NCBI GenBank assembly: GCA_022843305.1
Contig: JALHNX010000003.1
Location: forward strand, 4,272-68,271
Direction: 5' to 3'
Length of the DNA: 64,000 bases
Source of the DNA: Pyrinomonadaceae bacterium
GTDB taxonomy: Bacteria > Acidobacteriota > Blastocatellia > Pyrinomonadales > Pyrinomonadaceae
The position numbers and the translations under genes were made by a program. The notes below the pieces were generated by a model. It ran no database searches, was not told where the DNA came from, and worked only from the letters and a program-made list of their open reading frames with translations. Below are positions 2,551 to 44,601 of the stretch, one piece after another (positions within the stretch are counted from its first letter, which is position 1; each line of letters starts with the position of its first letter).

Positions 2551-4374
2551 TTAGCGATGTTCGAGTTGGATAAGATAAACCGCCGAATCGCCCTCGAATT
2601 CGATTTTGCTCAGTTTGTTGTCCGCGTCTTTCACAGCGGTTTTCTTTATTTTTCCGCTTTCGAGAAAATCCTTGAGCTTTTTCTCCAGTCCTTTATCAGC
2701 CAGTTTGCCGGTGTTCTGAAAAGCGTTTTCGCGCGATTTTTCCGCCGTTTCCGGTTTTTCCTTGCTCCAGACGACCCAGAAATTTTCCGTTCCGGCAGTG
2801 CCGCTGAATTCGTTCCAGCCGGTCTGATATTTCTGTTTGGCGGAAACATCCGCCGCGCCGTTGTTTTGTTTCGGAGTCGGGAAAATAATGTTGAAAACCC
2901 GTTCGCCTTTTTCGTCCAAGCCTTCGGCAAAAATATACAAAAAGCCATTTTCCGACGGAATGAGGTTCATCATAAATTGATAGCCGTTCTCGAAAATTTC
3001 CTGCCCGCTCGATTCAAAAGGCTCCTGATATTTTTTGCCGTCGCGCATTTTCTGCACGAGAAGCGAATAATCGAGATTCTTTGACGGCTGCGAAGCTGCG
3101 GTTTTCGCCGCGTTTTCGTTTGTGGTCGCGCCGCCCAACGCGCCCGAATTGGTATTCGCCGTTTCGTTTTGCTTTGAATCCGAGTTTGTTTTTTTCGTCG
3201 GATCGCCCGAAAACTTCCAAATGACACCCGCAGCAGATGCGCCGATAACAAGCAGCAAAACCGCGCCTAAACCGATCAGCGAAAACTTTTTGGTGTTTGA
3301 AGCGGGAACGCTTTCATGAGTTTGCGAAACAAAACCGGCTGACTGCTGAAACGTCGGAACAGACGGCGCGTTTTGATTTATTTCAATGATCTGCGCGGCG
3401 TTCTGCGTCGGCGGCGGCTGATAGTGAACTGCCGGATTGACGATTTCGGTTGCCTGCGTCGAGACGGAAGCCGCCTGCGAAAGTTTTAAACTCTGCCGGA
3501 ATTCCGCCGCCGTCTGAAAACGATGTTCGGGCATTACCTGCAAAGCCCGGTGAATCGCGCTTGCCAGCGCGGGCGAAACTTCCGCGTTCAGGGTTTGGAT
3601 GTTCGGCAGAGGGTCGGGTTTGTCAGACCAGAGCGCGTGAGCGCGAACCGTCGCCGTCGCCTGTTCGGGCGAAAATCCCGTCAGCAGATGATAAAGCGTC
3701 GCGCCGAGCGCGTAAATATCGCTGCGCCCGTCGGTTTTACGTTCGGCAAAATCGCGCATTTTTTCTTCATTGAGCGACATTAAAAGCAGATACGAATTCG
3801 GGTCAACCCGCAAAACCTGTTCGAGCGGCGCGTAAAAAGGCGTGTAGCCCGTAATGCTCTGTCCGCCGTAGGCAAGCGTTTTTTCCGCTTCTTCGACATT
3901 TCCTTTCGCCGTGCCGAAATCGAGCAGAAAAATTCGTCCCTTTTCGTCAATTTTGACGTTATGCGGCTTAATGTCGCGGTGATAGATCGGGAACGAATGC
4001 AGATATTCGAGCGCGTCGAGAACCTTATCGGCGATATTTAAAACATCCTGAATCTCGAATTTACGGTGTTTCATCAATCCGTGCGCCAGGTCTTCGCCCG
4101 AGATGTAATCCATCACGATAAAGCTTGCGCCCGATTCCTGAAAACAATTCGTAACCTTCGGCAGATTAGGATGGCTCAGATTATAAAGCAAGTCGGCTTC
4201 GACCTTTGAAGTCTTCGCCACCGCTTCGTTGTCCGAAAGAATTTGTTTGATGGCAACGCGGTTGTTGCCCGAAAAGCGCGTGTCTTCCGCCAGATAAACC
4301 GCGCCGAACCCGCCGCTCCCGATCTTTTCGCGGATCAGATAACGCCCGTCAATGATTTTTCCGTTTTCTAACAT
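2551..4374 (-). CDS. Hanks-type Ser/Thr protein kinase with TM helix and extracytoplasmic DUF4384-like domain
   Basis: Kinase motifs: IGSGGFGAVY (P-loop), VAIK, HRDIKPHNV, DFGTAK. TM helix FSLIGLGAVLLLVIGASAAGVIW. C-terminal NGFLYIFAEGLDEKGERVFNIIFPTP resembles DUF4384. Confidence 0.9.
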   Translation of the reverse strand: MLENGKIIDGRYLIREKIGSGGFGAVYLAEDTRFSGNNRVAIKQILSDNEAVAKTSKVEADLLYNLSHPNLPKVTNCFQESGASFIVMDYISGEDLAHGLMKHRKFEIQDVLNIADKVLDALEYLHSFPIYHRDIKPHNVKIDEKGRIFLLDFGTAKGNVEEAEKTLAYGGQSITGYTPFYAPLEQVLRVDPNSYLLLMSLNEEKMRDFAERKTDGRSDIYALGATLYHLLTGFSPEQATATVRAHALWSDKPDPLPNIQTLNAEVSPALASAIHRALQVMPEHRFQTAAEFRQSLKLSQAASVSTQATEIVNPAVHYQPPPTQNAAQIIEINQNAPSVPTFQQSAGFVSQTHESVPASNTKKFSLIGLGAVLLLVIGASAAGVIWKFSGDPTKKTNSDSKQNETANTNSGALGGATTNENAAKTAASQPSKNLDYSLLVQKMRDGKKYQEPFESSGQEIFENGYQFMMNLIPSENGFLYIFAEGLDEKGERVFNIIFPTPKQNNGAADVSAKQKYQTGWNEFSGTAGTENFWVVWSKEKPETAEKSRENAFQNTGKLADKGLEKKLKDFLESGKIKKTAVKDADNKLSKIEFEGDSAVYLIQLEHR

Positions 4375-4403
4375 AATTTTTAACGCAGAAATTATAAGAA
4401 AAA

Positions 4404-4483
4404 TTAGCCGCGGATTAACGCGGATTACGCGGATTAAATCAAATTATTTAAAATCCGCATAATCCGCGTTAATCCGCGGCTAA
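4404..4483. repeat. Long near-perfect inverted repeat (32-nt arms, 16-nt loop) built from three CGCGGATTA units per arm
   Basis: Left arm TTAGCCGCGGATTAACGCGGATTACGCGGATT (4404-4435). Right arm AATCCGCATAATCCGCGTTAATCCGCGGCTAA (4452-4483). There is one mismatch. It lies between two same-strand genes. Confidence 0.85.
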
Positions 4484-4487
4484 ATTC

Positions 4488-5480
4488 TTAAGGCACAATC
4501 GCCGACATCCGAAACGGCACCAGCAAAGGCAGGTCGGCGCTGATGCGGACTTTGTAGATCGTCTGCGGCAGCGGTTCTTCCTGTTCGAGCGCGCGCGTCG
4601 CGGTCTGCGCGGCGGTCAGTTCCGCGCTCGTCATCGCAATTCCTTCGCCGTCTTCGGCGTCGTAAATATCAACGGTCGCGCCCCAATCGTTTGACCATTT
4701 TTCAAACTGCGCGGTATTCAAAGCAAGTGCCTTCATTCCAATATCGAGCGGTAGTTTTTCCGTCGTGATCAGCACGACGAGTTCTTCGCCCGCGTAATCG
4801 CGGCGTTTCGGTTTGATCGTAAAATACGGCACGGAATCAGTCGAAGCGGGAATATCAACCAGACTTCCCGCCCGAACGCTGTTATCGCCGCCGCGCGTTC
4901 TCAGGGTCGGAAAAATTATATTCGCCGCGCCCGCCGTGCCGTCCGCGTAATATTCGCGGTTGATGATATACAGATAGCCCGAACGCGAAGATTCGATGGT
5001 AAACCGGACGCGGTCGCCTTCCCGAAAACGTGTTGTCGAATTGACGCGTTCCGCCGTCCAATTTTCGCGCCCGTCGCCGATTCTGACCGAGAAAAACGGC
5101 ACGTCGCCGTCGTCCGCAGCAATCGGTCGAAGCCGCCAGAACGTGACGCCGATCTGTTCGCTTTTGACAGCGGTTTTCTGCGGATTCGGTTTGGGCTTAT
5201 TAACATTTGCGACGGTCGTTTTCGGCGGAATACGTTTGACCAGATTGTATCTGCGCCGCGTGTTGGTGATCACGGCGAGATTTTTCCGCTGTTTTTGCGT
5301 TACGTTTTGCTGCGTTGTTTGATTGACGCGTTTGTCGCCGCTCGCGGGTTTCTGACGTTGCTTTTGAAAATCGAGCGACGAAATCTCGCGTGTCGCCACA
5401 TCATCCTGCGCGTAAACGGACGCGCCGCATAACAAAATTATCAGAAACAAACCTCGGGGGATTGTGATTCGTATTTTCAT
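4488..5480 (-). CDS. Secreted DUF4384-domain protein
   Basis: Signal peptide MKIRITIPRGLFLIILLCGASVYAQ, using ATG at 5480 (the track start at 5486 is TTG). DUF4384-like core RVRFTIESSRSGYLYIINREYYADGTAGAANIIFPT. Confidence 0.75.
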   Translation of the reverse strand: MKIRITIPRGLFLIILLCGASVYAQDDVATREISSLDFQKQRQKPASGDKRVNQTTQQNVTQKQRKNLAVITNTRRRYNLVKRIPPKTTVANVNKPKPNPQKTAVKSEQIGVTFWRLRPIAADDGDVPFFSVRIGDGRENWTAERVNSTTRFREGDRVRFTIESSRSGYLYIINREYYADGTAGAANIIFPTLRTRGGDNSVRAGSLVDIPASTDSVPYFTIKPKRRDYAGEELVVLITTEKLPLDIGMKALALNTAQFEKWSNDWGATVDIYDAEDGEGIAMTSAELTAAQTATRALEQEEPLPQTIYKVRISADLPLLVPFRMSAIVP

Positions 5481-5502
5481 ATTCAATTTTTTTCACCGGC
5501 GG

Positions 5503-5802
5503 CTAATAACTCACGTTGCGGCACTTTTCTTCCCTGTAGGTTCTGCCGCCGCGGGTAACCGTGCGGGTCCAACAGAGTTTCCGCCATCTTTTCGCCTTTT
5601 TCTTCTTTTTGGATATTCGGTTCTTTCGAGATATTCGCTTTTTTCCGCCTGCCGTGTTTACCGGCGCGGGTGTTTTGAAATCGTTCGACGTGATAATCGC
5701 TTTCGGATTTCTCGGCTGCTTCGATTTCTGCGCGAAACCGATTGTTCCGAAAGCCAATAATAAACTGACCAAAAGCAAAAACCTAAAATATTTATTTTTC
5801 AT
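5503..5802 (-). CDS. Small secreted, highly basic protein with a C-terminal Cys pair
   Basis: ATG preceded by AGGAG. Signal peptide MKNKYFRFLLLVSLLLAFGTIGFAQ. Lys/Arg-rich mature part ending in CWTRTVTRGGRTYREEKC. Confidence 0.55.
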   Translation of the reverse strand: MKNKYFRFLLLVSLLLAFGTIGFAQKSKQPRNPKAIITSNDFKTPAPVNTAGGKKRISRKNRISKKKKKAKRWRKLCWTRTVTRGGRTYREEKCRNVSY

Positions 5803-5884
5803 TTAACTCCTAAGTTTGCGGAAGGAGCGTACAAAGTAACGGCGCAATTTTACACCAACCTTAACATATATAAAGTTTAATTCA

Positions 5885-5912
5885 CCAAAAAAACGCAGTC
5901 ACGTTGCGTCTT
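5885..5912 (-). terminator. Putative intrinsic terminator after the caspase-FGE gene
   Basis: The minus strand reads GACGCAACGTGACTGCGTTTTTTTGG: a 5-6 bp stem followed by a T7 run, about 60 nt after the stop at 5971. Confidence 0.5.
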
Positions 5913-5970
5913 TTCCTTGAAAACCCGCCCTTGCGCATTAAAACTTATTCGATAAAATCTCTAAGGCAAA

Positions 5971-7605
5971 TTACTGCCTGACAAGGCGAAAACCATAGAA
6001 ATTGGTACGATTCGATGGCGTAACTCCCCATCTTCTCCAAACAACGAAACGGGATGAAAAACTTCCACCACGAGCAACCCGTGCGTTGTAAGGCGACGAA
6101 CCCGGACCTGTCGGGTCTGTTAATATTCCGCCTGTAGTTTTGTCAAACCAATCCTGACACCATTCAATAACATTCCCGTACATATCATACACGCCCCAGG
6201 CGTTTGCCTGCTTGGTCGCCACATCATGCGTCGCTTCGCCAGAATTGTCAGAAATCCACGCTACTTTGTCAGGATTTTTCAGAACGTCCTCTTTCGTTCC
6301 GGCACGCGCCGTATATTCCCATTCCGCCTCGGTCGGCAAACGGTAAAGATAACCGTCGTTGAGCAGGTTCATCTGGTTTACAAACTCTTGCGCGTCGTCC
6401 CAACTGACACAGATTACCGGTTTGTTATCACCGACAAAATTTCCGCTCAAACTGCCGGAATCGCATTTTGACGGTAAATCGCCCATCAAAGCCTTCCACT
6501 GTGCCTGTGTCACTTCCGTGACCTGCATTTCAAAACCCCGAGTTAATCGCACTGTTACAGGCTTATCGTAAGGAGAATCATTTGATCCCATCTGAAATTC
6601 GCCCGGCTGAATATACGAAAAGCGCATCTCGATGCCGCCCGGTAAAACGATCTTGCTGATCGTGCCCGTCGGTTTGACGGGTTTTAGTTTGATTTCACTT
6701 TTCTTTTCAATTTCAGGCTGCGGCTTGACAGGGGTCTGACTGATTGGCAGTTTGTTTACTTGAGCTGTTTGTTGTTCGACTCGTAACGCAAAGTAAAAGT
6801 CCTGCAAAGTATTGCCCTCTTTCCATGGCAATTGCTGTTTGTTCGATTTTTGCCAAACCTCCGCCGAAACCGCTCGTACCATCTTGTCGTATTCGAGATT
6901 CGGCTGTTTGATTTGCTTGAGAAGAGCTTCGGTGAAAAGTCCGTTGCGCCCCGCGCCGTCGGACGCGACTTTGCCGGGTTCGGTCGCGTAGAGAACGAGC
7001 GTTCCGGTCGGCGGTGAGATTTTTGCCAAACCGTCATTGTTTGAACTGTCACGGAACGAACGCCACGAACGGGCGAACGGGTTGTTGCGGCAAGCGTCCA
7101 GAATGACGATGTTCAGATCGTTTTTCGCCGTCTGCATTTTGCCCAAAACCAGCCCGATCGGAACTGCCGAATATGAAACTTCGTCCTCTTCGGGAATATC
7201 GGCATCAACCGGCACGAGATAATTTTCGCCGTTAACCTGCAACCCGTGTCCGGCGTAATAAAAAAGTCCGACTCCGCCCGATACTGTCAACTTCGTGCCG
7301 AATTCGCGGATCAAAGTTTCCATCTGCCGCTTGTTTTGATTAACGCCCGAAATGACTTCAAAACCCAGATCGCGCAAAGTTTTCGCCATATCCGCCGCGT
7401 CGTTCGAAGGGTTCGGGAGCGGTTTCGCCTTCGTATATGCGCCGTTGCCGATAACGAGCGCGACGCGTTTCTGCGACGCTTTTTTATTGTCTTCTTCCTG
7501 CGTCAATTCACGCGTCTTTTGTGCCTTTATGCCGGACGAAGCAATCAGCAACATAAATAAGCTGCTGACAATCAATAGCTGTTGTTTGTCGAACTTAAGT
7601 TTCAT
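5971..7605 (-). CDS. Secreted caspase (peptidase C14) fused to an FGE-sulfatase (SUMF1-like) domain
   Basis: ATG at 7605 gives the signal peptide MKLKFDKQQLLIVSSLFMLLIASSGIKAQ. Caspase His/Cys: YYAGHGLQ and ILDACRNNP. FGE-like: YRLPTEAEWEYTARAG, WGVYDMYGNVIEWCQDW, GGSF, YGFRLVRQ. The track N-terminal extension to 7833 overlaps the upstream gene and is rejected. Confidence 0.85.
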   Translation of the reverse strand: MKLKFDKQQLLIVSSLFMLLIASSGIKAQKTRELTQEEDNKKASQKRVALVIGNGAYTKAKPLPNPSNDAADMAKTLRDLGFEVISGVNQNKRQMETLIREFGTKLTVSGGVGLFYYAGHGLQVNGENYLVPVDADIPEEDEVSYSAVPIGLVLGKMQTAKNDLNIVILDACRNNPFARSWRSFRDSSNNDGLAKISPPTGTLVLYATEPGKVASDGAGRNGLFTEALLKQIKQPNLEYDKMVRAVSAEVWQKSNKQQLPWKEGNTLQDFYFALRVEQQTAQVNKLPISQTPVKPQPEIEKKSEIKLKPVKPTGTISKIVLPGGIEMRFSYIQPGEFQMGSNDSPYDKPVTVRLTRGFEMQVTEVTQAQWKALMGDLPSKCDSGSLSGNFVGDNKPVICVSWDDAQEFVNQMNLLNDGYLYRLPTEAEWEYTARAGTKEDVLKNPDKVAWISDNSGEATHDVATKQANAWGVYDMYGNVIEWCQDWFDKTTGGILTDPTGPGSSPYNARVARGGSFSSRFVVWRRWGVTPSNRTNFYGFRLVRQ

Positions 7606-7628
7606 AATCGCCTCTATTTTACTGCGTT

Positions 7629-8918
7629 TTACTTTGATGTAAAGGCAAGCGTCAGATTCGCGCTCGAACCGGGCAGAGCGCGGGGATTTTGTGCAAAATT
7701 CGTCGCCTTTTGCACCGCGCCCTGCGTGTATTGAAACAATTCGCCCGCCGTGATCAGATTGTCGCCGTTCATATCCGCCTTGCCTTTCAAACCGTCGAGC
7801 AATGCCCACGTAAAAACGCCGTGATTGCCCCATTTGGCGGATTCCTGCGAAACCTCGTTGACATCCGACGAAGTTATAATCGCGCGTCCCGTCTGTTTGA
7901 AAAGCTGATTGGTCAGATAAAAATTCGAGATGTTGTTTTCGTCGTCTTCCTGCACCAAATCTCTGCCCGAGACAAGTGATTTTGTTTTCTGATTTATCCC
8001 TGCGCTGTGGCAGGTGTCAATCAGAGTGATAACGCGTTGGGCGTAAATCTGCGTGTCGAGAATCTGTTTCAGCTCGCTCATCGGAAACGCGGTTTTCGGC
8101 ATATCCACGACCTTTGTATCCGAAAGCAGAAAATAAAGATTCTGCGGCGCGATCGGATCGGGCGCACCGTGTCCGGCGATAAATATAAAAACCAGATCAT
8201 CCGTCTTGGCGCGTTTCGCGGTTTCCGCCAGAGCCGCGCGCACGGCAACCAAGGAAGCGTCGCCGTTGACAAGCAGTTTAACGTCGCCCGCCGCGAAACT
8301 TCCGCCCGCCGGAGTTTTCAGAAAAGCGGCTATCGCCTGCGCGTCGTCGTCGGCAAAGTTCAGATTTTTGAGTCCTGCGTCGTTATATTTATATTCGGAA
8401 ACGCCGATAATGACGGCAAATTTGCGTCCGCGAAAGATTTCAGCCTTGCCGCCCGCGCCGCCCGCTTTTTCGATAACGGCGTTTTTATCGCCCAAAATCA
8501 ACAGATATGAAGCGTAATATTCGCGTCCCGTTTTTTTATCGGTCGCGCGGATTTCGATGACGTTTCTTCCGGGAAGAAGTTCGTACCCGAACGGACGGTC
8601 TTCGCGTCTGCCGCAATGCACGATTTTCCCCTGCGCGTCGAGCTTTTTATCGCACCCGCGATTAATGCCGCTGCCGTTCAAAGTAACGATGATTTTTCCG
8701 TAATCAATATCGGCGGCAAACGGTTCGAGGACGCGGAATTTCAGCGTCGGAACCGTCTTTGAAGGCAGACGAATAATCGGCGCAGTATAACGCGTCGCGG
8801 AAACTTCTGGAATTTCCAGAACAAACGGCGCGCGCGAAGAAAAACTCGTTTGTGCCGAAACTGTGGTTGTCAAAAAAACCAGTAAAAACAGGCTGTTTTG
8901 TAGAATTTGAGATCTCAT
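7629..8918 (-). CDS. Secreted caspase-family (peptidase C14) protein with an N-terminal beta-rich domain
   Basis: Signal peptide MRSQILQNSLFLLVFLTTTVSAQ. Caspase block FAVIIGVSEYKY, catalytic FIFIAGHGAPD and LIDTCHSAG. Confidence 0.85.
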   Translation of the reverse strand: MRSQILQNSLFLLVFLTTTVSAQTSFSSRAPFVLEIPEVSATRYTAPIIRLPSKTVPTLKFRVLEPFAADIDYGKIIVTLNGSGINRGCDKKLDAQGKIVHCGRREDRPFGYELLPGRNVIEIRATDKKTGREYYASYLLILGDKNAVIEKAGGAGGKAEIFRGRKFAVIIGVSEYKYNDAGLKNLNFADDDAQAIAAFLKTPAGGSFAAGDVKLLVNGDASLVAVRAALAETAKRAKTDDLVFIFIAGHGAPDPIAPQNLYFLLSDTKVVDMPKTAFPMSELKQILDTQIYAQRVITLIDTCHSAGINQKTKSLVSGRDLVQEDDENNISNFYLTNQLFKQTGRAIITSSDVNEVSQESAKWGNHGVFTWALLDGLKGKADMNGDNLITAGELFQYTQGAVQKATNFAQNPRALPGSSANLTLAFTSK

Positions 8919-8934
8919 AGTTTGTAAATGAATT

Positions 8935-8977
8935 TATATTTCTCCACGAAAGCGTAATGCCTGCGTGGAGAAATATA
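8935..8977. repeat. 14-bp perfect inverted repeat between the M48 and caspase genes
   Basis: TATATTTCTCCACG (8935-8948) and CGTGGAGAAATATA (8964-8977). No T-run follows on the minus strand. Confidence 0.6.
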
Positions 8978-8998
8978 TCACCGAAAACGAAGTTTTTT

Positions 8999-10717
8999 TT
9001 ATTGTTTTTTGGTTGTCGTTTGTTTGGTTGTCGTTTGTTTAGTCGCCGGTTGGACACTTGCCGGAGTATTATTTACGACCGTCGCTGCGACATTTCTGAC
9101 ATTCGCTACCGGCGCAACGCTCCAGTTGATTTCTCCGGCTTCCTGCATATAGTCGTAAATAATGTTCATATTCGGCGGAAGCGCACCGCCGTTCATCTGC
9201 TGATACATGGCGACATATTCCTTTAAGTCGTTGACAATTTCCGTAATGTTGTTGGTCGAACGTCCGCTCATTTTCGTTAAAGCGTAGTAAAACCTTGCCT
9301 GCGGGTTGGCTCTGCGGTCGTCAAGTTCAATAGCTTTGGCAAACATCCGTAAGGCTTCTTCTCTTTCACCCGCTTTTCGCGCCGTCAGTTTCAAAACTTT
9401 GCCGTAATAAAAATAACTGAGCGCGTCGTCCGAACGAATCGCCAGTGATTGGTCGAGGTTTCGGGCGGCGAGTTTATACATATCGTAATAAAAAGCGGTG
9501 ATGCCGTTGTCGCGTTTGAGAACCGCCATGATATTTTCAAATTCGCCGTCGCCCGCCATTATTTCGCCGTTCTGAATTTTCATTTTAATCTCATCAGCCA
9601 TTTTTTCCTGATTTTTTTTCATTCGGTCCGTCGTGACGGTCGAATTGCGGTCGAGCGAAAGCGCTTTTCCGCGCAGGTTTGTTGCGCCGAAAGTAGTTTT
9701 GGCAATCGTTGAAGAATTGGCTCCGGCAATCCATCCGTTCACGGCTTTGCGACGTTCTTCGGTGCGTTTACGGTCGGCGAAACGGTCGAGTTCGAGACGC
9801 GGATCTTCATTGACGGCAGTTTTCAGCGTTTCGTAAAACGTCTGGGTTTCGCGGACATCGTAATTGCGTCCAAGCATATATTCCATCGCTATTTTGTCGG
9901 CATCGTCCTCTTGCGCGAGCGACCATTCAAACGCCTTCGGGTCAACCAATTTTGCGACCGATTTGCCGAGCGACGAACCGGCTCCGATTAAAAACAGGCT
10001 ATTGCCGCCCAGCAAGCCGGCAGTCATACCGCCCGCAATCGCGCCGAAAATGCTCGCTTTTCTTTCCTGGTCTTTGGTGGCATCCTCAACCCATTTTGCG
10101 ACCATTACATCCTGCCGCCAATGTTCCTTTTCGACGTGCGCGATTTCGTGTGAAAGTATGTAGGCAAGCTGCGCTTCATTATCCACCAGCGAGAGCAGTC
10201 CGGTCGAGATATAGACTGTGCCGGTCGAAAGCGAACGCGCGTCAGGCATCGGATTGAGCGTGATTTTAAAACCGTAAAGTTTATCCGAGTTTTGCGGAAC
10301 GAGCGATTGTCCGACACGGTTAACATAATCCTGTGCCAAAAGATTGTCGTAAAGTGTGTCGTTGTTCTTCGGAATTTTATCGCCCGAATTGGTCATTACC
10401 CAATCATCGTTGTCAAGCGTGTTGTATTTAAATGCAAGCTGCGCGTGATCGCGTTGAAGACGGCGAAATTCATAATCAACATCTTCCTTGAATTCCGCAT
10501 CCCTGTTGTATTTCTCCTGTGCTTTAGCGAGTGTTTCTCCATATTTACGGATTTGTTTATCAACTCGTTTATCGTCTTTCTCGTTTTGTTTGGTTTCCTT
10601 TTTTTCCTCTTTGCTTTTCTCGACTTTTTGCGCCAGCGCGAACATCGGCATCATTAACGACAAAAACACAACTCCCGCAAGGATACGAACTGTAACCTTT
10701 ACTTCTCTTGTTTTCAT
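8999..10717 (-). CDS. Secreted M48-family zinc metallopeptidase with a C-terminal TPR-like region
   Basis: AGGAG followed by ATG. Signal/anchor VFLSLMMPMFALAQ. HEIAHVEKEH (HExxH) plus the downstream EDDADKIAMEYM motif typical of M48. The C-terminus has helical repeats and a TKQTTTKQTTTKKQ tail. Confidence 0.85.
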   Translation of the reverse strand: MKTREVKVTVRILAGVVFLSLMMPMFALAQKVEKSKEEKKETKQNEKDDKRVDKQIRKYGETLAKAQEKYNRDAEFKEDVDYEFRRLQRDHAQLAFKYNTLDNDDWVMTNSGDKIPKNNDTLYDNLLAQDYVNRVGQSLVPQNSDKLYGFKITLNPMPDARSLSTGTVYISTGLLSLVDNEAQLAYILSHEIAHVEKEHWRQDVMVAKWVEDATKDQERKASIFGAIAGGMTAGLLGGNSLFLIGAGSSLGKSVAKLVDPKAFEWSLAQEDDADKIAMEYMLGRNYDVRETQTFYETLKTAVNEDPRLELDRFADRKRTEERRKAVNGWIAGANSSTIAKTTFGATNLRGKALSLDRNSTVTTDRMKKNQEKMADEIKMKIQNGEIMAGDGEFENIMAVLKRDNGITAFYYDMYKLAARNLDQSLAIRSDDALSYFYYGKVLKLTARKAGEREEALRMFAKAIELDDRRANPQARFYYALTKMSGRSTNNITEIVNDLKEYVAMYQQMNGGALPPNMNIIYDYMQEAGEINWSVAPVANVRNVAATVVNNTPASVQPATKQTTTKQTTTKKQ

Positions 10718-27455: not shown

Positions 27456-29288
27456 TTACGAACATTGAATTTTAAGAGTTTGCCGCACAGATTGCGGAAC
27501 GGATTTTAGTTCATCGCATTGATAATCGCCGCCTTCGTCCATTCCGACTGATGTCCAAGTATTGCCGTTTTGTTTGAGAAGCCAAGTTCCGCCTTGTCCG
27601 GTAGTCTGCATTTTACTATTCATCGTATTCACACCGATTTCGGCGTAATCGTCGGCAAAACTCTTTATTTGCGACTTTGTTTTTTTAATAATTCGCCCCG
27701 TTTTTATCGCCGCCACATAATTAAAACCTTCCAGCGCAATCCAAACATATACATCTTGCGAACTCGCGCCCTGTTTGGTTTCTTTGACGACAAAAGCAAT
27801 GAGCGATGAGATTTTCTTTTGAAGCGCGGCGGCTTCGGCTCTTTTGATTTGCGCCGGTGTTTGCGGTTTGATTTTTGTGGTTTTCGGCGTAGTTTTGGCA
27901 ACATTCGGTTTTGGCTTCGGTTGAATCCAGCCGAAATATACGCCCACGCCTTCGACAAATTTTTCACGCCCGACGGTATGTTCGCTGAAATCGGCGTTTG
28001 AATAATTTAAAATCATTTCGCGCCGCGTGTCTTTCAGACGTTCCAACAACGAATTATTGTCAACATAAAGCACAACGCCGGTTGAAACTTCGCGGTAAAT
28101 CCCCATCATCCGCCGCCAGACGTTTGCGCCTTCGCGGACATCGTAACCGGCATCGTAAGCGTAATAAAGTCCAACGCGGTCGGCTTGTTCTTCCATATCT
28201 TTGGAAAATTTGCCGGACATCAGTTTATAAGACAGTTGCGCCATTAAAAGTCCCGTATTTTGTCCCAAAACGGACGCACCGATACCAATGAGTGCCGCCC
28301 AACGCGCTTGATCTTGTTGGGCTTCAAAACGTCGGCGGGCGTGTTCATTGGTAACGTGCGCGATTTCGTGTCCGAGAACGAAGGCTAGTTCCGCTTCGCT
28401 TTGCAGACGTTTTAAAAGTCCCGTATGAATAAAAACCGAACCGTCCGAAAATGCTACGGCATTCGGCACATCGTCTTCGAGAACATAAAAACGGAATAAA
28501 ACCCTATTCGGATCTTCTTCGGGCAACATTTTCAAATATTTCGGCACAATCCGCATTCCGATTTTTGTAACGTAAGTGTTAAGTTCCAAATCATCAACTA
28601 CTTTGAAAGTGCGTCCGTTGATTATCACGCCCGCGCCGGTTGTTCCGGGCGGCGGCAAGGTCAAACCTTTTTTGACGGTTTCCAATAATTTTGTTTCAAG
28701 CGGCGTAAAAAGATTCGGGCGAACTTCGCCGGACGTAACTCTAACTACCCGATTTGTCTGCCGAATGCCTTTCAAATCGAGAAGCGAACCGAGCGGAATA
28801 TCTTTGAATGTGTTAAAGGTTTTGCCTTTCCATTCTTTAACTCCGGTCAAAATCGCATTCGGCGCAAGCTCGACTACTCTGCCGTTGACTAACGCCCGCG
28901 GAACTTCAACGCGGTCGAGATAACCGTCAATATTCTCTTTCTGTTCTTCAGGATTCGTTTTTACATTGATTTGAACAGCTTTTAATTGGGTCGTTTCGAT
29001 TTTATCGAGTTCGATTTCAACTTCTATTCCGGCACGAATGTAATCCGCCGTAATCGCTTTGCCTTTGTGATTTTTGAGTTTGGTCTGCCCGCTAATCACA
29101 ATTTCCGCAAAATCCCGATTCGGCAAATTTTTCTCGTCCGTCTGAATAATAAGCCGATTAAATGGCGCGGCAAACTCCAAAACAAAACCGTCCTCAATTT
29201 TTGAAGGCAACTTTTTCTGCGCCGAAACTGATAAATTGACGGCTGCAAACATAAATAGCAGCAATGAAGTTAAATGTTTTTTATTCAT
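27456..29288 (-). CDS. Secreted M48-family zinc metallopeptidase (second paralog)
   Basis: Signal LLLFMFAAVNLSVSAQ. LGHEIAHVTNEH (HExxH) and EEQADRVGLYYAYDAG. N- and C-terminal extra domains of unknown type. Confidence 0.85.
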   Translation of the reverse strand: MNKKHLTSLLLFMFAAVNLSVSAQKKLPSKIEDGFVLEFAAPFNRLIIQTDEKNLPNRDFAEIVISGQTKLKNHKGKAITADYIRAGIEVEIELDKIETTQLKAVQINVKTNPEEQKENIDGYLDRVEVPRALVNGRVVELAPNAILTGVKEWKGKTFNTFKDIPLGSLLDLKGIRQTNRVVRVTSGEVRPNLFTPLETKLLETVKKGLTLPPPGTTGAGVIINGRTFKVVDDLELNTYVTKIGMRIVPKYLKMLPEEDPNRVLFRFYVLEDDVPNAVAFSDGSVFIHTGLLKRLQSEAELAFVLGHEIAHVTNEHARRRFEAQQDQARWAALIGIGASVLGQNTGLLMAQLSYKLMSGKFSKDMEEQADRVGLYYAYDAGYDVREGANVWRRMMGIYREVSTGVVLYVDNNSLLERLKDTRREMILNYSNADFSEHTVGREKFVEGVGVYFGWIQPKPKPNVAKTTPKTTKIKPQTPAQIKRAEAAALQKKISSLIAFVVKETKQGASSQDVYVWIALEGFNYVAAIKTGRIIKKTKSQIKSFADDYAEIGVNTMNSKMQTTGQGGTWLLKQNGNTWTSVGMDEGGDYQCDELKSVPQSVRQTLKIQCS

Positions 29289-34564: not shown

Positions 34565-35830
34565 ATGATACCGATTTCCGAAGCCATAAAAATCATTGAG
34601 CGCGAAAGTTTCGTGCTTCCGCCGGAAACGATTGATTTAGAAGATTCGATCGGGCGCGTTCTGGCGGAAAATATCAAAGCCGATATGGATTTGCCGCCGT
34701 TCGACCGTTCGCAGATGGACGGTTTCGCGGTGCGTTCGGACGACACGAAAAACGCGCCTGTTAATTTAAGAATTATCGGCGAATCGGTGGCGGGCAAAGG
34801 TTTCGACCAAAAAATGAAATCGGGCGAAGCCGTGCGAATTATGACCGGCGCACGCGTTCCCGACGGCGCGGACACAGTGCAAAAAGTTGAAGTAACAACA
34901 GAAAAAGACGGTTTTGTCGAGATTTTAGAAACTGCGAAACCGGCACAGAACATCAATAAATTCGCGTCGGAAATCAAAATAGGAACGAAAGTTTTTGCGA
35001 AAGGTGAGATTATCAACGAGCAGATGATTGCCGCGTTCGCATCGTTCGGTTATGCGAAATTGAAAGTTTTTCAAAAACCGCAGGTTTCGATATTTTCGAC
35101 CGGCAGCGAGATCGTCGAAATCGGCGAAACGCCGCAGAAAGACCAGATTCGCAATTCAAATTCGATGATGCTCAAAATTTTAGCCGAACGCGCGGGCGCC
35201 AATGCTGAAATTCTGCCGCAGGTTCACGACGATTTTAAAACGCTCAAAACAGCAATCGCCAAAGCTGTCGGTATTAAGGCAAAAGGCAAAAGGCAAAAGG
35301 CAAAATCTGATGAAAAGCAATCGCAAATCAAAAATCGCAAATCGCAAATCCTCATCATCACGGGCGGCGTTTCCGTGGGCGATTACGATTTTACGAAACC
35401 CGTTCTGCGCGAACTCGGCGCGGAGATTTTCTTTGAAAAAGTTTCATTAAAACCCGGCAAACCGGCGGTTTTTGCGCGATTAAATGACGTTTTGATTTTC
35501 GGTCTGCCCGGAAATCCGGTTTCGGTCGCGGTAACATTTTATCTTTTTGCGAGATACGCGATCTGGCGGGCGCAAGCGGCGAAAAACTGCGAGTTAAAAC
35601 GCGGTTTTGCGGTTTGTTCGGACAAAATAAAAGGCGCGAAAGAGCGCGATTGTTATCTGCCGGTTTCGCTTTCAACCAATAAAAAAGGTGAATTAATTAT
35701 CGAATCCCTGCGCTTTTCGGGTTCGTCGAATTTCATCGCCTTTTCCCGCGCCGACGCACTGGTTTTCATTCCGCAGGGCAAAAATCTGGAGAAAGACGAC
35801 GTTGCCGAGATTTTATTTCTTTTAAATTAG
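34565..35830 (+). CDS. moeA: Molybdopterin molybdotransferase
   Basis: ATG at 34565 (MIPISEAIKII). MoeA blocks PPFDRSQMDGFAV, RIMTGARVP, ITGGVSVGDYDF, KPGKP, GLPGNPVS. Confidence 0.9.
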   Translation: MIPISEAIKIIERESFVLPPETIDLEDSIGRVLAENIKADMDLPPFDRSQMDGFAVRSDDTKNAPVNLRIIGESVAGKGFDQKMKSGEAVRIMTGARVPDGADTVQKVEVTTEKDGFVEILETAKPAQNINKFASEIKIGTKVFAKGEIINEQMIAAFASFGYAKLKVFQKPQVSIFSTGSEIVEIGETPQKDQIRNSNSMMLKILAERAGANAEILPQVHDDFKTLKTAIAKAVGIKAKGKRQKAKSDEKQSQIKNRKSQILIITGGVSVGDYDFTKPVLRELGAEIFFEKVSLKPGKPAVFARLNDVLIFGLPGNPVSVAVTFYLFARYAIWRAQAAKNCELKRGFAVCSDKIKGAKERDCYLPVSLSTNKKGELIIESLRFSGSSNFIAFSRADALVFIPQGKNLEKDDVAEILFLLN

Positions 35831-35831
35831 T

Positions 35832-35900
35832 CCACGAAACACACAAAATATACAAAAATTATTATTCTGACTTTTTCGTTTCTTTCGTGTGTTTCGTGGG
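35832..35900. repeat. Palindromic intergenic element, family A copy 1
   Basis: CCACGAAACACACAAAATATACAAAAA...TTTTTCGTTTCTTTCGTGTGTTTCGTGGG, directly after the moeA stop. Confidence 0.8.
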
Positions 35901-35942
35901 CAAACTTCTTTTTTTATCCGTTATGTTGTAATTTCATAACTT

Positions 35943-36677: not shown

Positions 36678-36686
36678 ATTTTTCTG

Positions 36687-36765
36687 CCCACGAAACACAC
36701 GAAAGATACGAAAATAAGACTAAAGATTGCTTTGATTTTTTGTTTATTTCGTGTGTTTCGTGGGC
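36687..36765. repeat. Palindromic intergenic element, family A copy 2
   Basis: GCCCACGAAACACACGAAA (36687-36705) and TTTCGTGTGTTTCGTGGGC (36747-36765) are perfect 19-nt arms. Confidence 0.85.
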
Positions 36766-36776
36766 AAAAAACAAAT

Positions 36777-37247
36777 ATGAAAAAACTTTCGCATTTTGAC
36801 GAACAGGGCAAGATAAAAATGGTTGACGTTTCGGAAAAAGAAACGAGCGCGCGCCGCGCGGTCGCGTCCGCCAGTGTTTTGCTGAATAAAGAAACGATTG
36901 AAATTCTGCGGTCGAACGAAAACCCCAAAGGCAATCCCCTCGAAATTGCGCGAATCGCCGGAATTATGGCGGCAAAACGGACTTCCGAACTGATTCCTTT
37001 ATGTCATCAGATCAATCTTTCAAAGGTTGACGTGAAAACCGAAATTACGGACGCGGGCGTTTATCTCGAAGCCGAAGCGAAAACCGCGTCGCAAACCGGC
37101 GTTGAAATGGAAGCCTTGACGGCGGTGTCGGTCGCCGCGCTGACGATCTACGACATGTGCAAAGCCGTGCAGAAAGACATCGTCATCACGGAAATCCGGC
37201 TCGAATCGAAACAAGGTGGCAAAAGCGGTGATTTTAGGCGTAACTAA
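36777..37247 (+). CDS. moaC: Cyclic pyranopterin monophosphate synthase
   Basis: LSHFDEQGKIKMVDVSEKETSARRAVA..., IAGIMAAKRTSELIPLCH and TGVEMEALTAVSVAALTIYDMCKA. Confidence 0.92.
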   Translation: MKKLSHFDEQGKIKMVDVSEKETSARRAVASASVLLNKETIEILRSNENPKGNPLEIARIAGIMAAKRTSELIPLCHQINLSKVDVKTEITDAGVYLEAEAKTASQTGVEMEALTAVSVAALTIYDMCKAVQKDIVITEIRLESKQGGKSGDFRRN

Positions 37248-44518: not shown

Positions 44519-44591
44519 GCCCACGAAACACACGAAAAATACGAAATAATTTTTGACTTTATTTTTCGTTTCTTTCGTGTGTTTCGTGGGC
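44519..44591. repeat. Palindromic intergenic element, family A copy 3
   Basis: GCCCACGAAACACACGAAAAATACGAAA...TTTCGTTTCTTTCGTGTGTTTCGTGGGC. It starts 6 nt after the uvrA stop and ends 10 nt before the next ATG. Confidence 0.85.
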
Positions 44592-44601
44592 AAAAATAAA
44601 T

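Follow-up and report, generated by a model that had tools for sequence, protein, structure and literature searches.

Several of the domain combinations considered here have been described before. Fusions of caspase and FGE domains have been documented (PMC3501461), as have combinations of kinase with DUF4384 and of kinase with FGE (bioRxiv 10.1101/2025.01.12.632604) and of protease with DUF4384 (PMC6426788). A sequence-only reading of the DNA studied here had stated that caspase, FGE, DUF4384 and kinase domains recombine with one another, and these sources document it. The TPR-CHAT protease Craspase has Csx30 as its substrate, and one subgroup of Csx30 has been reported to carry a DUF4384 C-terminal domain (bioRxiv 10.1101/2022.08.17.504292). 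No functional study of a cluster such as the one described below turned up in literature searches, in agreement with the earlier statement that no function has been shown for an extracytoplasmic set of this kind.

The locus lies in a 64,000-nt stretch of DNA (the window) from a soil acidobacterium of the Pyrinomonadaceae (Acidobacteriota). It consists of six co-oriented genes on the minus strand (2551-10717; Table 1), whose ORFs match exactly the coordinates first stated and agree with the six consecutive genes first proposed. The listed start of g3 at 7833, which overlaps g2, was dropped; the real start is taken as MKLKF at 7605, because homologues and the signal peptide point there. Matches to PF00656, PF03781, PF14326, PF01435 and PF00069 were all found in the cluster. 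The label "death-fold" given to the set was wrong: the caspases have the caspase-hemoglobinase fold, and no Death/CARD/DED-type domain is present in the six proteins.

Table 1. Genes, motifs and hairpins of the cluster, in window coordinates
Feature	Position	Strand	Description	Motifs (nt) or folding
g1	8999-10717	-	M48 zinc metallopeptidase, 572 aa, exported by heuristic	HEIAH, aa 190-194 (10136-10150)
g2 (casp2)	7629-8918	-	caspase-like protease, 429 aa, exported by heuristic	AGHG with H250 (8166-8177); DTCHS with C303 (8004-8018)
g3 (casp3-FGE)	5971-7605	-	paracaspase-like caspase + TvpA-like C-type-lectin-fold domain, exported by heuristic	TRELTQEE (7492-7515); AGHG, aa 118-121 (7243-7254); DACR, aa 170-173 (7087-7098)
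g4	5503-5802	-	very basic 99-aa protein, exported by heuristic	ITSNDFK (5674-5694)
g5 (DUF4384p)	4488-5486	-	DUF4384 protein, 332 aa, exported by heuristic	ISSLDFQ (5364-5384); TR298ALEQEEPLPQ (4563-4598)
g6	2551-4374	-	Hanks-type Ser/Thr kinase, 607 aa, membrane	HRDIKPHN (3958-3981); DFG (3913-3921); TM segment, aa 364-386 (3217-3285)
Hairpin g1/g2	8939-8973	-		-27.8 kcal/mol for 91-nt 8915-9005, z -6.6
Terminator-like hairpin 3' of g3	5885-5912	-		stem GACGCA...UGCGUU, then UUUUUU
Near-perfect hairpin g5/g6	4404-4483	-		~30-bp stem, -63.6 kcal/mol, z -12.35

Conservation of the Gene Cluster

The same order of genes is seen in L001, L003 and L004. Two more (L080, L082) hold a core of M48, casp2, DUF4384p and kinase genes without g3 and g4, and L081 has this four-gene core plus extra, fragmented caspase ORFs. 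The core form leaves a gap of 5-11 nt between casp2 and DUF4384p, and in L080 it sits between different flanking genes. Relatives with as little as ~50% protein identity still keep the gene order, the position of the cluster beside rpoD and dnaG is stable, and the number of extra caspases per cluster ranges from 0 to 3. Conservation of the order in relatives was seen, but not for all six genes alike: the conserved unit is a set of four (M48, caspase, DUF4384 protein, kinase), and the caspase-FGE fusion and 99-aa peptide are a lineage-specific insert.

DUF4384-module genes are almost always found beside a gene for a caspase-fold protease (C14/CHAT). As raw adjacency, uncorrected for how densely caspase and CHAT genes occur in these genomes, 66 of 76 loci have a clan-CD protease gene (C14 or CHAT) <=6 kb from the DUF4384p gene; in a second set, 64 of 71 loci have one <=6 kb from the DUF4384 gene. 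The second set includes Terriglobales and Vicinamibacterales, where the order is kinase, DUF4384p, TPR-CHAT. A kinase gene lies <=6 kb from the DUF4384p gene in 50/76 loci. Loci were taken one per species but are clustered in Blastocatellia, and the counts overstate independence. Paralogous cluster types combine TPR-caspase, kinase, caspases and DUF4384p, or TPR-CHAT with DUF4384p. On a Gemmatimonadales contig, only 10 nt separate a TIR-TM-DUF4384 gene from the WD40-caspase gene that comes after it, whose product has a lipoprotein-like signal. That the genes are real, conserved and functionally linked is well supported.

Predicted Export of the Proteins

All six proteins had been proposed to carry a signal peptide or TM segment. 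Signal peptides were called with our own heuristic (n-region, h-region, A-x-A↓Q site) rather than a trained predictor; by this measure g1 to g5 have all three elements, and g6 has a single TM segment. The same heuristic gave positive calls in relatives of DUF4384p (91/99), M48 (23/26), casp2 (33/40) and casp3 (32/40), and in none of 65 kinase and 12 RpoD controls. By this heuristic, export is conserved across each family of exported proteins.

The Exported Proteases

The M48 assignment of g1 holds (PF01435, E 3e-13), with a signal-peptide site placed heuristically at ALA↓QK. The TPR-like repeats ascribed to it are marginal: the C-terminal region reaches Pfam E values of 0.03-0.3 only, and residues 448-475 match a consensus TPR in the PDB (E 3.6e-5). 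Among solved structures, g1 comes closest to 3c37 (3e-8), followed by BepA (6ait, 2e-6). M48 adjoins casp2 in the orthologous clusters where both were seen; 26 M48 ORFs were classified overall. A second M48 paralogue is encoded within the window at 27456-29288.

Both caspases have intact His/Cys dyads, as first read. The g2 protein matches PF00656 (E 7.6e-17), and all of 23 homologues keep its H250 and C303. Its N-terminal beta-sandwich spans aa 30-142 and includes two invariant residues, C89 and C102. The linker loop reads SLVSGR319DLVQEDDENN; of its residues, R319 and L321 do not vary among casp2 proteins. Its AF2 model (pLDDT 75) was matched by Foldseek to Yca1 (6e-10), and also to MALT1 and GSU0716. 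The g3 protein matches PF00656 (E 6.6e-41) and PF03781 (E 6.2e-40), and both dyad motifs are kept in 30 of 36 casp3-type relatives. PDB searches with g3 returned TvpA (2y3c, 6e-29), MALT1 (1e-16) and a true FGE (4e-12). The lectin-fold protein TvpA is the closest solved relative of its FGE domain. The fusion to an FGE-sulfatase/C-type-lectin-fold domain stands as regards PF03781 and the lectin fold, but not as regards catalysis: the alignment has a gap at the FGE "lchdsyc" segment, and an FGE enzyme was rejected, the catalytic Cys pair being missing.

The DUF4384 Module

The g5 protein was correctly recognised as a DUF4384 protein, with 33.7 bits on PF14326 against a cut-off of 27. It has 1,202 representative relatives. 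A disordered basic N-terminal tail, with the ISSLDFQ motif, leads into a core that is mostly beta; TR298ALEQEEPLPQ forms an exposed, conserved loop with invariant residues. The AF2 model (pLDDT 74, pTM 0.69, core >85) matched no PDB fold (best E 0.017), and the sequence had no match in the PDB either.

The basic peptide g4 was confirmed as such: its mature form of 74 aa has 26 K+R, 3 D+E and 2 Cys (pI 11.6). Pfam and NCBIfam searches returned no match to it. Close relatives keep the ORF at four loci (L085, on the same contig as L003, and L086, L087 and L098), where the signal peptide, the I.S.DF motif and both Cys are retained. It aligns collinearly with the N-terminal ~100 aa of DUF4384 proteins and is a small basic paralogue of the tail of the DUF4384 protein.

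The kinase domain of g6 (PF00069, E 8e-35) is cytoplasmic and has a G-loop, VAIK, HRDIKPHN, DFG and APLE. A divergent ectodomain starts at ~aa 430. The proposal that it is DUF4384-like holds by profile and by homologues, although the g6 ectodomain itself misses PF14326 even at E <= 1: PF14326 is matched by 13 of 16 ectodomain homologues, and the ectodomain profile matches the g5 family with 96% probability (E 2.6e-9). That the soluble protein and the kinase ectodomain share the module, as claimed earlier, is supported, with the likeness of the g6 ectodomain seen only at the profile level. Elsewhere, kinase-TM and TIR-TM receptors carry the full DUF4384p module as ectodomain.

The R-x-L-(T/V)-Q-E Motif

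Three places share the motif R-x-L-(T/V)-Q-E: the linker loop that follows the catalytic Cys in casp2, the N-terminus of mature casp3-type proteins, and the exposed DUF4384p loop. The pattern R.L[TVI]Q[EDST], which was defined post hoc, is present in 40/99 DUF4384p, 21/40 casp3 and 14/23 casp2 proteins, and in 8 of 843 other ORFs. RpoD carries the motif as one conserved site (11/12). In the AF2 models of g2 and g5 the motif lies in loops of low confidence, and the motif loop of DUF4384p is missing from the kinase ectodomain of the window lineage. With respect to the proposed scissile bond, it is mostly the P' side that is conserved, which is unusual for caspase-family recognition, and the motif could instead mark a docking site.

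Intergenic Hairpins

The three hairpins claimed earlier are all real by folding. The z score of -2.0 for the g3 hairpin refers to 5830-5975, the whole 146-nt g3/g4 intergenic stretch. The g5/g6 hairpin is made of CGCGGATTA-type repeats, then U5. Neither this hairpin nor the one at g1/g2 has a second copy in the window. Hairpins of other sequence are found at the g1/g2 junction of five related loci (L085, L090, L094, L096, L097), and repeat-built hairpins of different sequence at the g5/g6 junction of seven (L085, L086, L089, L091, L093, L082, L080). A generic terminator scan of the region showed no enrichment (21 found, 19.1 expected from shuffles). Because the hairpins lie between genes, more than one transcript from the cluster is plausible.

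Discussion

The linkage of the cluster is well supported; the mechanism proposed here is inferred. We tentatively favour, at somewhat less than even confidence, the reading of a protease-sensor-kinase module that acts outside the cytoplasm and is passed on vertically in Pyrinomonadaceae, in which the caspases would have the DUF4384 protein as their substrate. The exported caspases would be Arg-specific, both having the D-x-C pocket residue as in meta- and paracaspases. They would autoprocess and cut the DUF4384 protein at (small)-R↓x-L-(T/V)-Q-E. The cut would alter how the soluble protein or its fragment engages the DUF4384 ectodomain of the kinase, and altered engagement would switch cytoplasmic phosphorylation. 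Input would come from accessory domains of the proteases, here the beta-sandwich and lectin fold, elsewhere TPR, WD40 or TonB_C. As a guess, M48 would trim or clear products. The comparisons point to DUF4384 as a partner or substrate of caspase-like proteases because of the tight caspase/CHAT pairing, the shared Arg motif and the Csx30 report. No sign was found of a "common ligand" of the two DUF4384 modules, once suggested to couple the periplasmic proteases to kinase signalling.

The same pairing, one caspase/CHAT gene to one DUF4384p gene and often a few nt apart, would also suit self-protection. The exported caspases would then be degradative or offensive and the DUF4384 protein a periplasmic inhibitor or immunity partner with a substrate-mimic bait loop; the kinase ectodomain would report free protease or envelope damage. 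An invariant exposed loop with the caspase linker/N-terminus motif is what a pseudo-substrate would have, and a single DUF4384p is retained as caspase number varies. We consider this unlikely: a module that serves as kinase and TIR receptor ectodomain suits a sensor better than an inhibitor, the g5 fold is unlike known protease inhibitors, and there is no sign of caspase action on foreign cells.

Caspase, CHAT, TIR, kinase, TPR, WD40 and TvpA-like FGS domains belong to the vocabulary of prokaryotic conflict systems already described (PMC7159879; PMC10907252). The cluster could accordingly be read as extracytoplasmic surveillance against phage, predators or competitors, in which lectin-fold, TPR or WD40 domains on caspases recognise foreign surface molecules and proteolysis leads, via kinase or TIR, to dormancy or death. 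Several divergent paralogous clusters per genome (such as L108 with L162 and L153 with L161), variable caspase number, IS200-like genes inserted in L003 and L005, and the TIR-TM-DUF4384 receptors fit such a role. However, searches of the six proteins brought up no NTPase (STAND or MoxR), vWA or EAD adaptor, PADLOC gave generic kinase and caspase domain matches only, and no DGR template repeat was found. The orthologous cluster has been passed on vertically at one fixed position and does not sit in a mobile defence island, and this reading is rather improbable.

The likeness of g1 to BepA and its TPR-like segment bring envelope biogenesis or quality control into view, with a BepA-like M48-TPR and periplasmic proteases handling misassembled outer-membrane or surface proteins and the kinase reporting envelope stress. 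The stable chromosomal place is consistent with it, and in L002 and L005 a caspase-FGE and DUF4384 pair adjoins SurA-like and BamA (Omp85, five POTRA) genes, though in these two loci only. This role is improbable: g1 scores 52.9 bits on the NCBIfam BepA model (cut-off 570), the M48 paralogue could equally be the housekeeping enzyme, and the obligate DUF4384 partner and TIR output elsewhere are left unexplained. That the cluster is no functional unit, its exported proteins and kinase being unrelated and adjacent by phylogenetic inertia or shared secretion-related regulation, was already disfavoured and is very improbable: strong hairpins split g1/g2, g3/g4 and g5/g6, so that several transcripts are likely, and a single class of one phylum supplies most of the loci, but the core persists at ~50% protein identity and in one case with other genes on its flanks, paralogous clusters repeat the family combination in different order, the pairing recurs in Gemmatimonadota, and the families have motifs in common.

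As a theme for the cluster, surveillance of the envelope or surface is most likely. If the protease-sensor-kinase reading is true, these bacteria would use proteases to control a signalling device outside the cytoplasm, one that has not previously been studied.

Gene content and conserved core

A cluster of six co-oriented genes at 2551-10717 had been proposed from a sequence-only reading, and the ORF list gives six consecutive minus-strand ORFs with these limits (Table). Its domain assignments were borne out by Pfam and NCBIfam searches: g1 is an M48 peptidase, g2 and g3 are caspases (g3 fused to an FGE-sulfatase-family domain), g5 is a DUF4384 protein and g6 is a Hanks kinase. The remaining gene, g4, encodes a basic peptide of 99 aa. 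The ORF list starts g3 at 7833, within g2, and homologues start at MKLKF, 23 nt past the g2 stop, where the signal peptide of g3 is located. Caspases of related loci are called casp2-type or casp3-type after g2 and g3, and L numbers denote loci from other genomes.

Table. Coordinates of the cluster genes, their predicted signal-peptide regions and other features of the window.
Feature	Coordinates	Strand	Description
g1	8999-10717	minus	M48 peptidase, HEIAH
g2	7629-8918	minus	C14 caspase
g3	start 7605 (MKLKF)	minus	C14 caspase with FGE-sulfatase-family domain
g4	5503-5802	minus	no family match (Pfam, NCBIfam)
g5	4488-5486	minus	DUF4384 protein, above Pfam cut-off
g6	2551-4374	minus	Hanks kinase, all catalytic motifs present
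g1 N-terminus	10630-10717		predicted signal peptide, ALA↓QK
g2 N-terminus	8855-8918		predicted signal peptide, VSA↓QT
g3 N-terminus	7520-7605		predicted signal peptide, IKA↓QK
g4 N-terminus	5728-5802		predicted signal peptide, GFA↓QK
g5 N-terminus	5408-5486		predicted signal peptide, VYA↓QD
g5-g6 junction hairpin	4404-4483		long near-perfect palindrome
Second M48-family gene	27456-29288	minus	610 aa
Stretch common to both M48 genes	28342-28397; 10122-10177		56 nt
TTTCGTGTGTTTCGTGGGCAAA-core element	35808-35906; 36681-36787; 44536-44600		~44-61 nt, direct and inverted orientation
Direct-repeat segments	55282-55489; 58990-59197		3.6 kb apart

No further copy of the cluster was found in the window, just one more M48 paralogue. 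This protein is 32% identical to g1 around HEXXH, and the stretch that the two genes have in common is 75% identical in DNA. The element with the core TTTCGTGTGTTTCGTGGGCAAA corresponds to repeat families D2, I1, I2 and I4 of the repeat scan of the window. The two direct-repeat segments carry 11 overlapping copies with a 12/18/24-nt periodicity and are probably a repetitive coding segment common to two neighbouring genes.

Synteny in related genomes had been suggested as a check on the sequence-only reading. Gene order is kept, with a conserved core of four genes rather than six. The related loci are all from Acidobacteriota, the closest being from Pyrinomonadaceae, and in the close relatives L001, L003 and L004 both the order and the flanking genes are retained. 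Relatives whose DUF4384 protein is 52-56% identical to g5 have the core of M48, casp2, DUF4384 and kinase genes without g3 and g4, and the gap between the casp2 and DUF4384 genes is then 5-11 nt. One such locus, on a 5.3-Mb contig, has different neighbours. Since the core is kept without g3 and g4 in these more distant relatives, the conserved unit is the four genes, into which the lineage of the window has inserted a casp3-type caspase (here with an FGE-family domain) and the small peptide. In 83 loci there are 0 to 3 casp3-type genes in the gaps of the core or following it, and only some of them encode the FGE-family domain. At L003 9881-11200 the lectin-fold domain of a casp3-type caspase is replaced by a TonB C-terminal domain (PF03544, E 9e-14). 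In L003 (12815-13558) and L005 (12956-13552) the caspase genes are separated from the DUF4384 gene by IS200-like transposase genes (Y1_Tnp, possibly REP-associated), and the casp3-type gene beside the one in L003 is without an FGE-family domain.

Pairing of DUF4384 genes with caspase-fold proteases

Paralogous cluster types were found in the class as well, at times within one genome. One consists of a TPR-caspase, a kinase, 0-2 casp3-type genes and a DUF4384 protein; its kinase is ~42% identical to g6 in the ectodomain and ~27% in the kinase domain. In the other, an exported TPR-CHAT protein adjoins the DUF4384 protein. Among 76 loci whose flanks reach 3 kb or more, a C14 or CHAT gene lies within 6 kb of the DUF4384 gene in 66 and a kinase gene in 50; these are raw counts, uncorrected for the genome-wide density of caspase genes and taken over one locus per species from related species. 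Most exceptions are contig ends beside the DUF4384 gene. In a second set, retrieved by a different pattern, a C14/CHAT gene was within 6 kb of the DUF4384 gene in 64 of 71 loci, among them loci of Terriglobales and Vicinamibacterales in which the order is kinase, DUF4384 protein, TPR-CHAT. Other Blastocatellia have a variant neighbourhood (L108 2649-12041, also L153 and L103), and its order in L108 is Peptidase_C70-like protein, exported TPR-CHAT (~1,100 aa), DUF4384 protein and Sortilin/BNR-repeat protein (~1,090 aa).

The pairing reaches another phylum, with another cytoplasmic output, in a single example. Locus L165 (Gemmatimonadales contig JBQTHV010000091.1, 1-5089) was the sole genome match for a TIR receptor. 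It carries a TIR-TM-DUF4384 gene; the next gene begins 10 nt on, and its 1,179-aa product combines a lipoprotein-like signal and WD40 repeats with a caspase domain at the C-terminus (YFAGHG, IDACNSG). A second TIR-TM-DUF4384 protein, P0371, was also found. That DUF4384 modules work together with caspase-fold proteases is well supported, and the genes of the cluster probably form a functional unit. Chance adjacency is disfavoured, the comparative data being against it.

The two caspases and the M48 peptidase

Both g2 and g3 belong to peptidase family C14 (PF00656, 62.2 and 140.9 bits against a cut-off of 21.4). Their catalytic dyads, which the sequence-only reading had described as intact, are intact and conserved in relatives. 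H250 and C303 of g2 are invariant in 23 homologues, the motifs of g3 are AGHG (118-121) and DACR (170-173), and both motifs are kept in 32/35 casp2-type and 30/36 casp3-type relatives. The AF2 model of g2 matched Yca1 (6e-10), MALT1, GSU0716 and procaspase-7, which gives it a caspase-hemoglobinase fold, and the caspase part of g3 matched MALT1 by sequence (E 1e-16). An Asp lies two residues ahead of the catalytic Cys in both enzymes (D-x-C; D301 in g2, D170 in g3). An Asp at this position is a feature of the S1 pockets of Arg/Lys-specific metacaspases and MALT1, and this motif, the only pointer to specificity, hints that g2 and g3 may be Arg/Lys-specific. The two proteins are like orthocaspases, metacaspases and MALT1 in their PF00656 domain, His/Cys dyad and D-x-C pocket residue; they differ in their signal-peptide-like N-termini and in their conserved cluster with a DUF4384 protein and a receptor kinase. 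The recombination of these domains with one another, which the sequence-only reading had mentioned, is already catalogued for caspase-FGE, kinase-DUF4384 and protease-DUF4384 architectures. The caspase-FGE architecture accounts for 33 of 671 prokaryotic metacaspases, and N-terminal helices or signal peptides have been noted, without follow-up, in ~15% of these enzymes (PMC3501461). The literature searched contained no functional work on exported C14 enzymes of the g2/g3 kind.

Two related readings of the caspases were rejected. An EACC1-associated caspase two-gene system was discarded because g2 (101.9 bits) and g3 (68.6 bits) fall below the NF047832 cut-off of 140 bits and no EACC1-type partner was matched among the six proteins. 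The N-terminal beta-sandwich of casp2 was tried as a DUF4384 homologue and given up at an hhalign probability of 6%; the same alignment first drew attention to a shared R-x-L-V-Q-E motif.

The C-terminal domain of g3 is a member of the FGE-sulfatase family (PF03781, 137.9 bits against a cut-off of 23.3). Its closest solved relative is TvpA (2y3c, E 6e-29), matched over two stretches that include the N-terminal beta extension, and true FGEs follow at E 4e-12. In the alignment, the 'lchdsyc' segment of Streptomyces FGE 6muj falls in a gap of g3 and no g3 Cys is found there. An FGE/SUMF1 enzyme was rejected because this segment holds the pair of catalytic (copper-binding) Cys, and its absence points to a binding domain rather than an enzyme. 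The reading of 'FGS' domains as binding domains in conflict systems agrees with this (PMC7159879). The domain is like TvpA and the variable proteins of DGRs in having a C-type-lectin fold of the TvpA subtype. It is like the FGS domains of conflict systems in its place C-terminal to a caspase, and kinase and TIR domains are served in the same way (PMC7159879). It differs from both in having no template repeat and no MoxR, vWA or STAND partner, and in being apparently exported. Scans for a template-like repeat, made with the g3 3' end across the 64-kb window and near the FGE 3' ends in nine related loci, gave none, so that nothing suggests DGR-driven variation in g3, and DGR targeting of its lectin-fold domain was rejected at this locus.

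For g1, the sequence-only reading of an M48 peptidase with TPR-like repeats held for the M48 part with its HEIAH motif, and the TPR part is marginal (Pfam E 0.03-0.3; one consensus-TPR match in the PDB, 3.6e-5). The protein resembles BepA, the M48-TPR periplasmic protease of the BAM pathway, in its predicted periplasmic M48 domain with HEXXH and perhaps in the marginal TPR-like region that comes after it, and BepA structures are among its nearest solved relatives. It differs in always being encoded with a caspase and a DUF4384 protein and in scoring 52.9 bits against the cut-off of 570 of the NCBIfam equivalog NF052400 (BepA), a failure for which BepA identity was rejected.

The DUF4384 protein g5 and its probable relatives, g4 and the kinase ectodomain

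The g5 protein matches PF14326 at 33.7 bits (cut-off 27) and belongs to a family of stand-alone exported proteins of ~300-350 aa. In 1.84 billion representative proteins, a profile search retrieved 1,202 relatives, 424 of them below E 1e-30, and profile searches of PDB sequences retrieved none. The AlphaFold model of g5 (pLDDT 74, pTM 0.69, core above 85) begins with a basic, disordered N-terminal tail and has a mostly beta core; residues 296-308 form an exposed loop that connects a helix to the final beta-hairpin. Foldseek against the PDB gave only weak matches (TM ~0.2), almost all of them antibody Fab fragments. A few members of the family are fusions, including receptor-like kinase-TM-module and TIR-TM-module proteins, a TPR-module protein and a WD40 protein. 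Such architectures suggest that the DUF4384 module can serve as a receptor ectodomain.

The kinase g6 matches PF00069 at 120.9 bits, has the G-loop, VAIK, HRD, DFG and APLE motifs and is predicted to span the membrane once (364-386), a topology that would make it a receptor-type Hanks kinase with an extracytoplasmic C-terminal domain. The sequence-only reading had called this ectodomain DUF4384-like. It has no direct PF14326 match of its own (E <= 1), and the resemblance holds at the profile level: PF14326 matched 13 of 16 homologues of the ectodomain (best 2e-6), and the ectodomain profile aligned with the DUF4384 region of the g5 family at 96% probability (hhalign, E 2.6e-9). BLASTP of g6 against g5 gave E 0.001. 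These comparisons support homology of the ectodomain to DUF4384 at that level. A PASTA kinase (PknB/Stk1) was rejected, since g6 reaches 188.6 bits against the NF033483 cut-off of 450, through its kinase domain alone, and has no Pfam match to PASTA repeats. With PknB/Stk1 and the 'Proteo1' STK family, whose ectodomains are DUF4384 or FGE, g6 has in common a Hanks kinase, a single TM helix and an extracytoplasmic sensor domain. It differs from them in being without PASTA and in being encoded alongside a soluble paralogue of its ectodomain and dedicated proteases. Kinase-DUF4384 architectures have been catalogued previously (bioRxiv 10.1101/2025.01.12.632604).

The small peptide g4 is confined to close relatives. 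An I-[ST]-S-x-D-F motif directly after the signal peptide occurs in DUF4384 proteins and in all six ORFs classified as g4 homologues, and g4 is collinear with the first ~100 residues of DUF4384 proteins (KRCRYxxFKR against KRRYNLVKR). From this collinear alignment, g4 is best read as a stand-alone copy of the DUF4384 protein's N-terminal tail with two added Cys.

Predicted export and transcription units

The export of the cluster proteins proposed in the sequence-only reading was supported by a heuristic, a simple scan for an n-region, an h-region and A-x-A rather than a trained predictor. The scan was positive in g1-g5, each with an A↓Q site, and gave a single TM helix in g6. It was positive in 80-92% of relatives for each exported family and negative in 65/65 kinases and 12/12 RpoD controls. 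The N-terminal domain of g2 has two invariant Cys, which would also fit an oxidising compartment. All parts of the cluster other than the kinase domain are thus predicted to be extracytoplasmic. The A↓Q sites also occur in many homologues of g1-g5 and might be common to this acidobacterial lineage as a whole. They recall the 'Q-rule' (N-terminal pyroglutamate) of Bacteroidetes.

Three hairpins had been read as a sign of more than one transcript. They are real, and two of them are far more stable than shuffled sequence. Hairpins recur in many relatives at the M48-casp2 and DUF4384-kinase junctions with unrelated sequences, often short tandem repeats. At the DUF4384-kinase junction, the hairpins of the window, L085 (8994-9075), L086, L089, L091, L093 and L082 are long near-perfect palindromes built from differing 6-9-nt tandem repeats (CGCGGATTA, GGAATCT, ACGAATT and others), and L087 and L088 have one-armed GTGAAAAA repeats instead. 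Position and structure are conserved here and sequence is not, which suggests a conserved punctuation that may divide the cluster into three units: M48; caspases and DUF4384 protein; kinase. A REP/MITE origin was rejected, since the two strong hairpins are each unique in the window and those of relatives are made of unrelated short repeats; the hairpins are therefore not copies of one mobile element. No Rfam families or tRNAs were found in the window. A promoter/terminator consensus scan showed no enrichment over shuffles, and its individual matches carry little weight.

A shared Arg motif and a possible mechanism

The motif R-x-L-(T/V/I)-Q-(E/D/S/T) was found at three sites in the cluster. 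The first is the invariant exposed loop of the DUF4384 protein (TR298ALEQEEPLPQ in g5), the second is the mature N-terminus of casp3-type enzymes (AQKTR32ELTQEED in g3), and the third is in casp2 (SLVSGR319DLVQEDDENN), in a low-confidence loop of the model 16 residues past the catalytic Cys. This last position is that of the intersubunit linker where caspase-family enzymes autoprocess. The strict motif, a pattern defined after the data were seen, occurs in 40/99 DUF4384 proteins, 21/40 casp3-type and 14/23 casp2 proteins and 8/843 other ORFs. RpoD has one conserved copy, and the residues conserved in the motif lie mainly to the P' side of the putative scissile bond. The strong pairing of caspase and DUF4384 genes would call for an explanation even if the motif were no cleavage site. 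The TPR-caspases of L124 (1832-4381), L128 and L131 (~820-850 aa), which head paralogous kinase-DUF4384 clusters, have SRQLQQLPP in a linker ~45 residues ahead of the caspase domain.

A cleavage-gated kinase would fit these features. The caspases would be Arg-specific, would autoprocess and would cut the DUF4384 protein at the shared motif, and this cleavage would control the kinase through its DUF4384 ectodomain. Input would come from the accessory domains on the proteases, and the M48 peptidase would trim or clear the products. We regard this mechanism as doubtful, if possible, and the overall explanation, linkage and mechanism together, as tentative, at slightly short of an even chance.

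Several other roles for the same genes were considered. The DUF4384 protein may inhibit the caspases, with its exposed loop as bait. The BepA-like M48 peptidase suggests a role in envelope quality control, and two loci lend it support: a caspase-FGE and DUF4384 pair adjoins a SurA-like PPIase gene in L002 (2058-6797) and BamA (Omp85, five POTRA) and ClpB-type ATPase genes in L005 (7171-18130). The same hardware could also serve immune-type surveillance.

Comparison with known systems

A published parallel to the cluster is Craspase (type III-E CRISPR), in which the TPR-CHAT protease Csx29 cleaves Csx30 and frees a signalling fragment that controls a regulator. Craspase and the cluster each have a caspase-fold (clan CD) protease, in Craspase one with a TPR scaffold, encoded beside a dedicated partner, in Craspase its substrate, and gene pairs of TPR-CHAT and DUF4384 proteins are common among relatives of the cluster. 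One Csx30 subgroup has been reported with a DUF4384 C-terminal domain (bioRxiv 10.1101/2022.08.17.504292), by analogy a published precedent for DUF4384 as a substrate of CHAT proteases. Craspase differs in being cytoplasmic and RNA-guided and in acting on a sigma-factor/anti-sigma module. In the cluster, all parts except the kinase domain are apparently exported, the output is a Ser/Thr kinase (TIR in Gemmatimonadota) and cleavage is putative. No Cas-related or CHAT domain above threshold was found in the six proteins, and the repeat scan of the window lists no regularly spaced array.

Two classes of conflict system were also rejected. An NTP-dependent system (VMAP, iSTAND/STAND ternary; Kaur et al. 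2020) was dismissed because no MoxR/STAND NTPase or vWA component was found in the six proteins or the flanking RpoD, which was also scanned; a flanking 182-aa protein was scanned without matches. The PADLOC 2.0 matches were confined to generic domains, kinase (PD-T4-6, mad6) and caspase, and g4 and g5 had none. A known anti-phage defence system was set aside, as no system-specific protein model of PADLOC 2.0 was matched.

In Spaetzle-Toll signalling of Drosophila and in protease-activated receptors, secreted proteases with recognition modules cleave a soluble pro-ligand or a receptor loop, and the signal is then carried on by a membrane receptor whose cytoplasmic part is a kinase or TIR domain. 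The likeness of the cluster to these systems is one of logic, an analogy, and the extracellular parts differ in having no homology. The TIR-TM-DUF4384 and WD40-caspase pair of L165 has the Spaetzle-Toll outline and looks like a bacterial 'Toll-like' receptor paired with an exported caspase of its own. A broader reading, which we consider unlikely, is that bacteria own an extracytoplasmic, caspase-driven proteolytic relay from an external or envelope cue to receptors with DUF4384 ectodomains. Exported caspase-fold proteases with recognition domains (lectin fold, TPR, WD40) would be triggered by the cue and would cut at (small)-R↓xL(T/V)QE in a soluble DUF4384 'pro-ligand' or in the receptor's own DUF4384 loop. 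The product would activate receptors with a DUF4384 ectodomain and a cytoplasmic Ser/Thr kinase or TIR domain. If true, the relay would be a periplasmic counterpart of the logic of Spaetzle-Toll and protease-activated receptors, and would give a first function for exported orthocaspases and DUF4384.

Significance

The literature found describes neither the conserved extracytoplasmic gene cluster nor the near-obligate pairing of DUF4384 genes with caspase/CHAT genes, nor kinase- or TIR-output receptors adjoining exported caspases, the shared Arg motif or the origin of the small peptide. We rate the cluster as putative protease-coupled transmembrane signalling built from known domain families. 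To our knowledge, few of the numerous prokaryotic caspase homologues have a known role, those that do are cytoplasmic, and the signal peptide or N-terminal helix of ~15% of them has never been explained. The DUF4384 family (~1,200 representative clusters) has no solved structure. The linkage of the genes is solid, the function is one that we infer, and the host lineage is difficult in the laboratory. The cluster provides exported caspases with a concrete, conserved set of partners: a DUF4384 protein, a receptor kinase and a candidate cleavage motif. If confirmed, it would represent a new route by which bacteria pass signals through the inner membrane, with caspase-type proteolysis taking place outside the cell. 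DUF4384 would gain a function and a connection with TIR-bearing receptors and with Csx30, the substrate of Craspase.
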